Shown piece after piece: positions 1,386 to 6,866 of a stretch of 64,000 nt of DNA (positions are counted from its first letter, which is position 1; every line of letters starts with the position of its first letter). Where the stretch lies: positions 91,185 through 155,184 of the forward strand of contig CAVRXY010000016.1 of the NCBI GenBank assembly GCA_963725225.1, read 5' to 3'. The position numbers and the translations under genes are program-made. The notes beneath the pieces are model-generated. The model did no database searches, was not told the origin of the DNA, and saw only the letters and a list, made by a program, of their open reading frames with translations. Source of the stretch: an uncultured Acidobacteriaceae bacterium (GTDB lineage Bacteria > Acidobacteriota > Terriglobia > Terriglobales > Acidobacteriaceae).

Positions 1386-3536
1386 CTACCAGAGCTTGCG
1401 GTCCACGAAATCGCGGATCTCGCGTGCGGCAATTCCTGCGAGACTGGTGCGACGCACCACGATTCTCGCTGTTCCAGTCATTCCGGCCCGCAGCGAGCCG
1501 TCATTTTCGAGCAGGACATCGGCGAGATAGTCGCCCGTGCTCGTCTCTCCCTGAATCTGCTTAATAGTTTCTACCGCTGCCGGCACATGGCCCGAGGCCA
1601 TCTCGATGCGCTCAACCGATGAGTGTCGCGGCGCGAAAGTTCCATCCACCAGCAGACTCACGCGCGCCCGCGGCTGCACATGCCCGACTGCAAATTCCGG
1701 AACATAGAGCAGCGCTCGCATGATTTGCGTGTCGACCACATCGGTTATGGTCACCCCTGCATCCAGATAGCTGTCCGTCAGGTCCTTCAGCCGCGTTGCC
1801 GTGACCACACCATCGATCGGCGCACGAGCCACCAGTTGTTGTGTCTCCTCGCCGGCGATTGCGGAGTTCTTTTCCGCCTTGGCGTGCTCCTGCTCGGCGG
1901 CGCCCACGTCGCCATGCGTGAGCAACTCCTGGATGCGCGCTCCTGCAGTAAGGGCCACTTCTTTGCCTGAGGCCGCGCGAGCCGAATCAAGAGTCGCATT
2001 CGTCATCGTCAGCAACGGATCGCCGGCCTGGACATGCTGGCCTTCCTCAGCCAACACCGCGGTAACGCGCCCCGGCACCATGGCACGCACCACCGCCTGG
2101 CGCGCGGGTTCCAGCAGGAACCGCACCGTGATCGTCTCGCGCCAGAGCGGAAGAAACACAAGCATCAGAAAAATAGCCACGCCACCCACGATCCGAGGCA
2201 GGGACAGCCAGGCACGGACACGGTCACGTTTGTCGAGATACACAGTCCTCACAAACCTCAAGAGTATTTTGATCCGAGAGCGGAAAATAAGTAGCGCCAA
2301 CGCCAGCACGGGAATGAACGCCCACTGCGGGGTAAATCGGGAAAGGACGTTGTTACTGAATCGCAGGACCGTGAACAAAAGCATGTAGCTGTAAAGCCCG
2401 GAGAGAATCGCATACGTTAAATAGCCCGATCGCCGTCGCCTCGGTACGAATTCCATCTCGACGGGAAGGCGGAAGATATGCCTCCGAACCAGCCCCGAGA
2501 GATATGCTGTCGATCTCTCCTTGATGTCGGAGAAGCCGATGATCTCGGAGAACGCGTAGTACCCATCCAGCTTGATCAGCGGGTTCATATTGACCACCAC
2601 AACCGCGACTCCGGTGATCAGCATGATTTTGTATGCCAGATCGTGCGCGCCGCTTCCTGGGGGCGTGCCCCACCAGAGGATGGTTGCCACCGCGCAAAAG
2701 ATCATCTCCGCTCCGATGCCGGCGAGGATGATGAGGAATCGCTGCCAGCGTCCGGCATAGACGAACGCCTCGCTCACATCCACAAAGAAGGCCGGAGTCA
2801 GGTAGATGAGGTGGAAGCCCATCGCGTGGACCTGTCCGCCATAGTGCTTGCAGGTCAGCCCGTGTGCCGACTCGTGAAAGAACGCGAGGATTAGAAACAG
2901 CAACCAGAACTCAGCCAGATCGCCCGCAGTCTTTTGCGTAAAGTTATAGAACAACAGCGAGTCCTGCGCTATCTGTCCCCAGTTTGCGGCGAACACATAG
3001 ATCATGAACCCGAACAGAACGAGGCACACAACGCCAAACCATCGCGAATAAAGCCACTTCAGCCGGGGATAAATCCGATTGAAATATCGATCCGGATCCC
3101 AAGCTGAAAACTGCATGTGCGCCACATCGCCCCACTTCGATTTCTTGTGTGCGTGCTGATGACGGCCTTCCTCGAGTTTCTGTTGCAGTGCGATATTTTT
3201 TTCGAGGGGCGTTCTGTACCAGAAGTCGACCGCGTCCAGACCGCTGGTAAACTCGCGCAGGTCGTCGGGATCGAAGCGCGTCCCGTAGAGTTCCGCATGC
3301 AGCGCTGCCACGTCCTCCCACGATCGGGTGCCGTCAAACAGCTCGATGATTTTCCACTGTTCCGGCGGGAAGCGGAAAAAGCTGTCGCGGCCGCGAATCA
3401 TCGCCACGATCACGGGCTTCCCATCATCGCTGTTCTCCTGCCAGATAAGCCCGGGGTCGACCTTCGGATAACTGACTCGCGCTTTCCGAGCCGGCAGATC
3501 CGGCAGTGCCGCATTGAGCGCCTCGGCAAGGTTCAT
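1386..3536 (-). CDS. M50 (site-2-protease-like) membrane metalloprotease with an N-terminal PqqD/RRE-like segment and a C-terminal HlyD-type adaptor domain (716 aa)
   Basis: HESAHG zinc motif and NMNPLIKLDGYY (the S2P NxxPxxxLDG-type motif) lie in a polytopic region. The C-terminal ~270 aa resemble membrane-fusion proteins (VQAGDPLLTM ... VVTATRL ... ARIVV). The start overlaps the upstream stop by 4 bp. Confidence 0.8.
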   Translation of the reverse strand: MNLAEALNAALPDLPARKARVSYPKVDPGLIWQENSDDGKPVIVAMIRGRDSFFRFPPEQWKIIELFDGTRSWEDVAALHAELYGTRFDPDDLREFTSGLDAVDFWYRTPLEKNIALQQKLEEGRHQHAHKKSKWGDVAHMQFSAWDPDRYFNRIYPRLKWLYSRWFGVVCLVLFGFMIYVFAANWGQIAQDSLLFYNFTQKTAGDLAEFWLLFLILAFFHESAHGLTCKHYGGQVHAMGFHLIYLTPAFFVDVSEAFVYAGRWQRFLIILAGIGAEMIFCAVATILWWGTPPGSGAHDLAYKIMLITGVAVVVVNMNPLIKLDGYYAFSEIIGFSDIKERSTAYLSGLVRRHIFRLPVEMEFVPRRRRSGYLTYAILSGLYSYMLLFTVLRFSNNVLSRFTPQWAFIPVLALALLIFRSRIKILLRFVRTVYLDKRDRVRAWLSLPRIVGGVAIFLMLVFLPLWRETITVRFLLEPARQAVVRAMVPGRVTAVLAEEGQHVQAGDPLLTMTNATLDSARAASGKEVALTAGARIQELLTHGDVGAAEQEHAKAEKNSAIAGEETQQLVARAPIDGVVTATRLKDLTDSYLDAGVTITDVVDTQIMRALLYVPEFAVGHVQPRARVSLLVDGTFAPRHSSVERIEMASGHVPAAVETIKQIQGETSTGDYLADVLLENDGSLRAGMTGTARIVVRRTSLAGIAAREIRDFVDRKLW
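3219..3416 (-). other. PqqD-like / RiPP-recognition-element-like segment (residues ~41-106 of the M50 fusion)
   Basis: FRFPPEQWKIIELFDGTRSWEDVAALHAELYGTRFDPDDLREFTSGLDAVDFW aligns by eye to the PqqD pattern (ILELVDGRR..V..I...L...F....VD.DV.EFL..L....W). Confidence 0.5.

Positions 3537-6866: not shown

Follow-up and report, generated by a model that had tools for sequence, protein, structure and literature searches.

Two described systems offer a precedent for the locus reported here. MpaP joins a recognition element (RRE) for RiPPs, peptides that are made on the ribosome and modified after translation, to an intramembrane site-2 protease (S2P) and removes the leader of daptides (10.1101/2023.03.08.531785), and EpeP, an M50 protease, is believed both to cut its peptide and to export it (PMC10885120). 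The locus was found in 64,000 nucleotides (nt) of DNA from an uncultured Acidobacteriaceae bacterium (GenBank assembly GCA_963725225.1, contig CAVRXY010000016.1, positions 91,185 to 155,184 of the forward strand), a stretch which we call the window and in whose coordinates all positions are given. It comprises three co-translated genes and a small convergent gene for a repeat peptide. One of the three encodes a protein of 716 amino acids (aa) with a predicted RRE, an M50 protease core and a periplasmic adaptor domain of the HlyD type; the other two encode further adaptors, one of which carries GAF domains. RRE-S2P leader peptidases are already known; the adaptor fusion, the GAF-adaptor partner and the family of cargo peptides appear to be undescribed. 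A literature search returned no description of an M50-adaptor fusion architecture, as the initial annotation of the window had supposed, and an apparent match for M50, HlyD and lanthipeptide in combination was false, the matched term being a residue named 'M507'. Our main reading, to which we assign a probability of about 0.55, is that the RRE binds the leader of the repeat peptide, that the M50 core removes this leader at the cytoplasmic face, and that the three adaptors link this step to an outer-membrane channel.

The fusion protein, its operon and the repeat peptide

Reading of the open reading frames (ORFs) of the window confirmed three minus-strand genes at 4458-6866, 3533-4450 and 1386-3536, as the initial annotation had proposed. 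The M50 gene and the 305-aa gene share 4 nt (3533-3536), where the start of the former coincides with the stop of the latter, and the 305-aa gene begins 7 nt past the stop of the 802-aa gene. Matches to HlyD_D23, HlyD_3 and RND_mfp cover all three products, which places each of them in the HlyD adaptor family. The GAF, lipoprotein, PqqD-like and M50 assignments made earlier from the letters alone were likewise borne out by hidden Markov model domain annotation, hydropathy, AlphaFold2 (AF2) models and Foldseek. The 716-aa protein (1386-3536) was characterized by NCBIfam, motifs, AF2 and Foldseek. Its residues 33-419 match NF041824, 'daptide biosynthesis intramembrane metalloprotease', with E 9.9e-45 and a score of 153 bits against an equivalog cut-off of 300 bits. 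The sequence HESAH occupies residues 221-225 (2862-2876) and NPLIKLDG residues 318-325 (2562-2585); neither motif varies among 64 close relatives or among 78 relatives from four phyla. Hydropathy predicts about 7 transmembrane (TM) helices at residues 165-462 (2151-3044); they separate an N-terminal domain in the cytoplasm from the adaptor domain in the periplasm, at residues 465-716 (1389-2144). Together with the AF2 models it gives the arrangement of an M50 enzyme, namely a polytopic core with HExxH and NxxPxxxxDG motifs at the ends of TM helices.

The AF2 model of the whole fusion reached a predicted local distance difference test (pLDDT) of 81, and that of residues 1-470, built with a cross-phylum alignment, a pLDDT of 81.5 and a predicted template modelling score (pTM) of 0.75. 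At about residues 24-102 (3231-3467) a cytoplasmic beta3-alpha3 domain is predicted, whose sole meaningful Foldseek matches in the Protein Data Bank (PDB) were to TbiB1, a leader-bound RRE of a lasso peptide (probability 1.00, TM-score 0.66); PqqD (PF05402) is recorded on several relatives. In the model the second TM helix carries HExxH at its cytoplasmic end and NxxPxxxxDG follows the fourth; a beta-hairpin (residues 239-252) separates these two active-site motifs. The adaptor domain of the model is complete, including an alpha-hairpin at residues 514-566 with arms of about 25 residues each. Foldseek related this domain to MacA, MexA and AcrA (E 5e-14) and a profile search to a MacA chimera (E 1e-21), while the family matches were HlyD_3 (3.3e-9) and RND_mfp (E 1.6e-20 over residues 474-697).

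The two partner proteins were assigned from family matches and hydropathy. The 802-aa protein (4458-6866, minus strand; Pfam and NCBIfam) carries three cytoplasmic GAF stretches at about residues 1-510 (GAF_2 E 2e-26, GAF E 1e-23), a single TM segment predicted at residues 537-555 (5202-5258), and a periplasmic adaptor part at about residues 556-802 (HlyD_D23 8e-24, HlyD_3 1.3e-21). The 305-aa protein (3533-4450, minus strand) is a lipoprotein adaptor, with a signal peptide ending in the lipobox VAGC at Cys19; it matches HlyD_3, HlyD_D23 and TIGR01730 (RND_mfp), the last with 146.9 bits against a cut-off of 94.9. A -24/-12-like element, GGATCAGAAATTGCT, was noticed at 6923-6937 on the minus strand, some 60 nt upstream of where the GAF-adaptor gene begins. 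As a sigma-54 promoter of the three-gene operon it was rejected: it is not conserved and is confined to the closest relatives. Other clades have sigma-70-like TTGACA...TAAAGT sequences instead.

The gap between the operon and a truncated activator gene to its left is open on both strands. On the plus strand it holds a precursor-like gene for a peptide of 99 aa with a GTG start (1003-1302), which is supported by the gene calls of relatives, a ribosome-binding site (AAGGAG, 989-994, 8 nt before the GTG), a -24/-12 element, a terminator, the leader and the codon pattern. Its putative sigma-54 (-24/-12) promoter, TTGGCATTCAAATCGCA, lies at 918-934 with GG at 920-921 and GC at 932-933, and the motif starts 85 nt upstream of the start codon. 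A strong intrinsic terminator with an 11-bp stem and a T-run (from 1346 to 1371-1380, plus strand) separates the peptide gene from the convergent operon. The leader, MAIQKKSLISNLKSSKVK..., covers about codons 1-21 (1003-1065) and includes the stretch MAIQKKSLISNLKSSKVKSTK. It is followed by a linker and then by VLSK(T/S)P hexapeptide repeats, which repeat analysis traced to an array of 18-nt units present in 5.9 copies (1150-1255); the net charge of the peptide is +17. No Pfam or NCBIfam family matched the peptide. When relatives are compared, most of the variation in codons 2-9 falls on the third position (entropy 0.65/0.17/1.20 at the three positions), the pattern of a coding sequence. A minus-strand ORF of 108 aa with LERTGV-type repeats (987-1313) was considered as a real gene and discarded as an antisense shadow, given that the gene calls of relatives, the leader, the ribosome-binding site and the promoter are all on the plus strand.

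Genes of the same kind stand in the corresponding gap of relatives. We compared the contexts and flanking ORFs of 85 loci related to the window, 86 sequences in all with the window itself. Each locus with sequence in the gap contains 1-5 small genes starting M-(A/T/S)-I-Q-K-K-S-L-I. The leader motif was found in the expected gap of 77 of the 86 sequences, the remainder having an MVQKKSLI variant or a contig end there, and a six-frame scan of the 64-kb window returned a single occurrence. The leader consensus, MAIQKKSLI..KKAIVA, spans some 21 residues; conservation extends to about residue 21 (..N/T-L-x-T-T-K-K-A-I-V-A) and then drops to background level. At positions 1, 3 and 5-8 this conservation is partly by construction, because those positions were used to find the genes. 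Clear tandem repeats occur in 58 of 84 distinct peptides, with a period of 5 or 6, or doubled to 10 or 12; typical units are VLSKTP, GLSKNV, GLTTSK, ELGKRV, DLAKRV, ANRTL, SGVTR, KPGAM, PGAAVR and APRVA. The unit carries a net charge of +1 in 42 of the 58 repeat-bearing peptides, the copy number has a median of 8.5 and a maximum of 17, and the median charge of the whole peptide is +15. Units and copy number differ between close relatives; the core is hypervariable, and the C-termini end in varied residues. The locus thus shows the features of a RiPP-type precursor: a short precursor, a conserved leader, a variable core and an adjoining protein with an RRE fold. Upstream of the first peptide gene, at 60-110 nt, a TTGGCAy-N5-TyGCw element is present in 73 of 77 loci, and the combination of an AAA+ activator with a GG-N10-GC promoter suggests a sigma-54 unit.

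Conservation, distant relatives and surroundings

A pattern scan of species-representative genomes gave at least 415 carriers in Terriglobia, of which 80 loci were examined; the synteny counts that follow are limited to Terriglobia loci with enough flank. The GAF-adaptor gene stands beside the fusion in 71 of 71 loci and the lipoprotein-type adaptor gene in 80 of 80. A convergent sigma-54 activator is present in 77 of 77 and a STAS protein within the flanks in 59 of 61. The peptide gene keeps its adjacency in all loci that have sequence there, down to 39% protein identity. When the flanking ORFs of the 85 loci were clustered all against all, the recurrent families were the trio, the activator, the STAS protein and, in nine loci, an RsbW-like kinase. 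A module of six parts is conserved across Terriglobia. The initial annotation had suggested that the trio may act on the adjacent sigma-54-controlled repeat peptide, and here the link has become strong: a gene with the same leader occurs in every locus with sequence at this place, the promoter in 73 of 77, and the protease bears an RRE fold.

In the window the activator, a sigma-54 enhancer-binding protein, is represented by its C-terminal 246 aa (19-759, plus strand) with AAA+, lid and helix-turn-helix regions (Sigma54_activat E 2.5e-43, AAA_lid_14 5.6e-25), its N-terminus being cut off by the window start; a terminator-like hairpin is predicted after the gene (795-815, plus strand). Full-length relatives have about 466 aa, and their N-terminal domain of about 155 aa is at best a weak receiver. 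The STAS or anti-sigma-factor-antagonist-like gene (7060-7407, plus strand; STAS E 1.7e-13, TIGR00377 54.2 bits against a cut-off of 53.45) is divergent from the operon. At some related loci an RsbW-like HATPase_c_2 kinase gene follows the STAS gene (as at L003:8351-9174), and at others a shortened activator of 349 aa is flanked by two SpoIIE-type phosphatases (as at L005:14605-18949). From these gene orders, control of the sigma-54 activator by a partner-switching circuit is suggested.

Homologues of the 716-aa protein number more than 2,300, are nearly uniform in length and come from Acidobacteriaceae, Korobacteraceae, Sulfotelmatobacter and other Terriglobia; a look-up of its exact sequence gave no record. 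Databases label the family 'HlyD family efflux transporter periplasmic adaptor subunit' or, in JGI and KEGG, 'putative peptide zinc metalloprotease protein'. Cultured carriers are Granulicella sp. S190, Tunturiibacter empetritectus (strain M8UP27), T. gelidiferens and, outside this group, Desulfobaculum xiamenense. For a wider view residues 1-470 of the fusion were scored against 1.8 billion representative proteins, which returned 699 relatives at E <= 1e-30. Among the best 149 of these 699, 80 have the length of a fusion (at least 640 aa), and 77 of the 80 carry both protease motifs; HlyD domains were present in all eight fusion-length relatives sampled. Seven further contexts from other phyla were inspected. 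The GAF-adaptor is also paired with M50-adaptor fusions in Desulfobacterota, Bdellovibrionota and Planctomycetota.

In several of these contexts the trio is accompanied by a large candidate cargo. Desulfobaculum xiamenense has, in this order, a hyper-acidic tandem-repeat protein of 713 aa with GEYMPP-type repeats (L086:4665-6806), a GAF-adaptor, an M50-adaptor and a short adaptor; no gene for an outer-membrane efflux protein (OEP) was called at this locus. Three loci of Bdellovibrionota type (L087, L089, L090) combine an acidic repeat protein of about 1000 aa, two OEP/TolC-like genes, a GAF-adaptor, an M50-adaptor and a short adaptor; the acidic proteins at L087:4132-7170 and L090:15881-18892 have NxDGS/PEG-type repeats. 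None of the acidic repeat proteins near the distant trios belongs to a Pfam or NCBIfam family. Their common N-terminus reads MAK(R/K)KKS..KKLE(D/E)RIAPGM(I/L/V)GG, and its start resembles the MAIQKKS leader of Terriglobia, a likeness in sequence for which homology is undemonstrated. A profile search with the cross-phylum cargo leader gave no significant match, the query being too short. The candidate cargoes are opposite in charge by phylum, polycationic in Terriglobia (median +15) and strongly polyanionic in Desulfobacterota and Bdellovibrionota; one idea is that this is linked to the polarity of the membrane potential in acidophiles. A planctomycete locus has a GAF-adaptor, an adaptor-HEAT protein and the fusion. 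Finally, two RRE-M50-adaptor relatives of about 820 aa (P0328 and P0347, JGI 3300047160) directly follow runs of small ORFs; one contig has 12 of these (44-70 aa), the other three (40-58 aa), and the P0328 contig also carries LanC-like and LanB dehydratase genes. Judged from this gene content, the fusion family may also serve class I lanthipeptide-like clusters, and it may be a general, overlooked component for RiPP leader removal and export.

Several further observations concern the surroundings of the locus. No known RNA family was found in window positions 1-8000, and no PADLOC anti-phage defence model matched among five proteins. Further along, two paralogous proteins of about 1,180 aa with CBM-like and GH38 alpha-mannosidase domains and an outer-membrane protein with CarboxypepD_reg and OMP_b-brl_4 domains (12454-15981, 26239-29823, 29902-33267) look like a glycan-utilization region. 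An 840-aa protein with AMP-binding, phosphopantetheine-binding and acyltransferase domains (49293-51815, minus strand) has an Aas-like architecture. Just past the activator gene of the closest relatives stands a pair of genes for an encapsulin (Linocin_M18) and a DyP-peroxidase (L006:12843-14715); in this genome the position falls to the left of the window start. A metagenome-assembled genome labelled Chlamydiota (L065) contains a complete module of the Terriglobia type, including a leader peptide MAVQKKSLISN... with PSKLH repeats, and its label is probably a binning error.

Proposed mechanism and alternatives

In the mechanism that we propose, the sigma-54 activator, probably itself controlled via the linked STAS partner-switching protein, would turn on the -24/-12 promoter of the small gene or genes. 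The product would consist of a leader of about 21 residues and a hypervariable polycationic array of 5-6-residue repeats. The cytoplasmic RRE of the 716-aa protein, with its PqqD fold, would bind the leader, and the adjoining M50 metalloprotease, whose motifs are predicted at the cytoplasmic ends of TM helices, would cut it off. Because the protease is fused to an adaptor and co-translated with two more, cleavage would be physically coupled to an adaptor tube containing one lipoprotein adaptor and one adaptor that is TM-anchored to three cytoplasmic GAF domains. This tube would dock a TolC-type channel encoded elsewhere, through which the repeat peptide or its fragments could leave the cell; if exported, the peptide is probably unmodified and leader-cleaved. 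The GAF domains may act as a cytoplasmic platform that regulates or docks the step. The analysis shows architecture, conservation and genomic context; leader binding, cleavage, export, the stoichiometry of the adaptors, the role of the GAF domains and the source of energy for crossing the inner membrane are what we infer. The initial annotation, which saw the protease in the position of a pump and a GAF ligand as its gate, is supported within the reach of computation; the protease may replace the pump, a GAF ligand may gate the device, and its output may be export or signalling.

A number of observations weigh against this mechanism. Pfam Peptidase_M50 (PF02163) scores 25.9 bits on the 716-aa protein, just under the threshold of 27.2, and neither Foldseek nor a PDB profile search found a solved S2P structure for the core; the protease assignment therefore rests on the NCBIfam match and the motifs. 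To our knowledge M50 proteases do not act as transporters, and no translocase or energy-coupling component was identified in the module. Export of a peptide of charge +15 against an inside-negative potential is costly. The Terriglobia loci have no linked outer-membrane factor, and the module has no immunity gene. Strictly speaking the module is no RiPP cluster, since its recurrent genes include no post-translational modification enzyme. The peptide gene is transcribed separately from the operon and convergently to it, so that its functional link to the operon rests on co-location and on the logic of leader and RRE. The window allele itself also has a disturbed end (1200-1302). Set against L015 and L006, two relatives at 95-97% identity, it carries a pair of 1-nt shifts inside the array, which produces a unit FSPKTP, and, close to its end, a net deletion of 7 nt which moves the stop to 7 nt after the ancestral TAA. 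Its tail, KKFSQDAVSRKRWCNA, is thereby frameshifted against ..PVLSKKMV in the relatives. These differences would be explained by an array that is truly decaying or by faulty assembly of the repeat.

A wider reading, which we consider less likely than not but a real possibility, extends the mechanism beyond Terriglobia. The trio could be the inner-membrane and periplasmic core of an unrecognized, pump-less secretion system in at least four phyla, in which an RRE recognizes the leader, an intramembrane metalloprotease removes it, and a hetero-oligomeric tube of adaptors hands highly charged repeat cargo on to a channel of TolC type. The cargo would be polycationic peptides in Terriglobia and polyanionic proteins of about 700-1000 aa in Desulfobacterota and Bdellovibrionota. 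The drive would be something other than ATP hydrolysis by a transporter, for example electrophoresis of the cargo or a ratchet by extracellular binding or folding. Neither the peptide, nor the acidic cargo candidates, nor the trio taken together has a model in Pfam, NCBIfam or PADLOC.

The first alternative to be weighed is a conventional system that has been split, in which the adaptors serve an unlinked ATP-binding cassette (ABC) transporter of MacB- or peptidase-containing (PCAT-like) type, a resistance-nodulation-division (RND) pump or a major facilitator superfamily (MFS) pump, and the M50 protein is a leader peptidase feeding that pump; the apparent lack of a pump would then reflect gene linkage alone. 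Tripartite envelope systems are defined by an energized inner-membrane transporter; the adaptors here find their best matches in MacA, MexA and AcrA, all of which depend on pumps. Genes of the tolC type are commonly unlinked, and Acidobacteria contain many orphan MacB-like duplicated permeases. However, if such a partner were obligate, one would expect to see it linked in at least some loci. The initial annotation had reported no pump and no outer-membrane factor nearby, and indeed ABC, RND, MFS and OEP genes were absent from window positions 1 to 12 kb, and none was found when ten further large window ORFs were scanned. In the 85 Terriglobia loci neither an ABC, RND or MFS pump nor the TolC family was found within about 8-10 kb. 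The seven contexts from other phyla contained no ABC, RND or MFS pump either, even where a cluster has two TolC-like genes of its own and a cargo candidate. The transporter that is normally linked in HlyD-family tripartite systems is thus missing from the window, the 85 loci and the seven contexts, a statement about linkage that leaves room for an unlinked partner. ORF clusters of the size of an ABC exporter in 5-7 loci turned out to be peptidase S15, PEPCK, a lectin-domain protein and a TPR protein, all clade-specific neighbours. A conventional pump as a routine neighbour had been named in the initial annotation as the result that would speak against it; since flank clustering shows no pump family, this objection falls away. 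With the inner-membrane position already filled by an adaptor-fused 7-TM protein, we consider a split system unlikely.

A second alternative, which we regard as distinctly improbable, is a device for signalling by regulated intramembrane proteolysis without export, in which the adaptors scaffold or sense, the GAF domains and the STAS protein relay, and cleavage of the peptide or of another substrate tunes the activator. M50 proteases are classically signalling enzymes and GAF is a typical sensor module; the activator and the STAS protein are conserved in the module, with an RsbW-like kinase or SpoIIE phosphatases at some loci. The candidate substrate does not fit this role. The 99-aa peptide has no hydrophobic segment, and so lacks the TM substrate of classical regulated intramembrane proteolysis, and it has no anti-sigma-like domain either; hypervariable repeat cores with changing copy number would be unexpected in a regulator. 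The adaptors moreover retain alpha-hairpins of the TolC-docking type, and homologous clusters contain TolC-like genes and large, secreted-looking repeat proteins.

That the peptide is an unrelated cytoplasmic polycationic protein of histone-H1/AlgP type which binds nucleic acid or polyphosphate, while the operon acts on something else, would suit its Pro/Ala/Lys-rich repeats (KPGAM, APRVA, KVAP, PGAAVR, like the KPAA repeats of AlgP) and its separate transcription unit with a terminator of its own, but is very hard to reconcile with adjacency in every locus, a sharply conserved leader before a free-running core as in precursors, the leader-binding RRE fold of the adjoining protease, and a parallel leader in the neighbours of distant homologues.

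On the preferred reading, leader removal coupled to an adaptor tube, an intramembrane protease that binds leaders would stand, together with a GAF protein, in the position of the transporter. Should the module export cargo, it would change the view of how the export of peptides and proteins across two membranes is powered. Its distribution over at least 415 species-level genomes gives it weight in Terriglobia, a dominant and poorly understood soil group, and its peptides, hypervariable, polycationic and under tight sigma-54 control, show the pattern that antimicrobials, matrix components or signals specific to a species would be expected to have.

Comparison with known systems

The protease half is a relative of MpaP. 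Both proteases have an N-terminal RRE/PqqD fold before a polytopic HExxH M50 core, the daptide family being the best NCBIfam match of the 716-aa protein, and both are adjoined by one or more short, leader-bearing precursor genes. The 716-aa protein differs in its score, which is about half of that family's cut-off, and in its additional C-terminal periplasmic adaptor. The loci differ as well: the window lacks the daptide tailoring enzymes MpaB, MpaC, MpaD and MpaM and has no ABC exporter, its precursor has neither the ELExMEAP leader nor the invariant C-terminal Thr, and its host is a Gram-negative acidobacterium. By sequence, the protease half is best placed as a relative of MpaP outside the daptide family.

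In the YydFGHIJ/EpeXEPAB systems an M50 protease (YydH/EpeP) likewise matures a small ribosomal peptide, and the 716-aa protein shows weak homology to the YydH/LiaK family (NF058609, E 1e-7). The system of the window differs from these in lacking a radical-SAM epimerase and an ABC transporter, and in having adaptor fusions, a GAF partner, sigma-54 control and a core made of a repeat array. With a candidate substrate that has no hydrophobic segment, the fusion resembles RiPP-type M50 enzymes such as MpaP and YydH/EpeP more than RseP or SpoIVFB.

For the peptide itself, precursors with many tandem copies offer a parallel. Yeast alpha-factor, Kex2-processed repeat proteins of fungi and the multi-core precursors of cyanobactins and microviridins carry many tandem copies per precursor. 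The family described here shares with them tandem short units, a copy number that varies between close relatives and a basic residue per unit. It differs in that no Kex2-like or unit-specific protease and no tailoring enzyme is linked to it, and nothing here indicates that its units are cut apart.

The likeness in overall design is to CvaAB-TolC, PCAT and MacAB-TolC systems, where a leader-bearing peptide is cleaved at the inner membrane and handed to a HlyD/MacA-type adaptor and a TolC channel; for the window this course is proposed from its genes. Unlike these systems it has no ABC transporter or nucleotide-binding domain, and an M50 metalloprotease fused to an adaptor takes the place of a C39 cysteine protease fused to the pump. 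The Terriglobia peptides lack a double-glycine leader, and three different adaptors, one with cytoplasmic GAF domains, set the trio apart. By analogy, then, the system is most like a bacteriocin or type I exporter which, minus the defining ABC transporter, would still couple cleavage to export.

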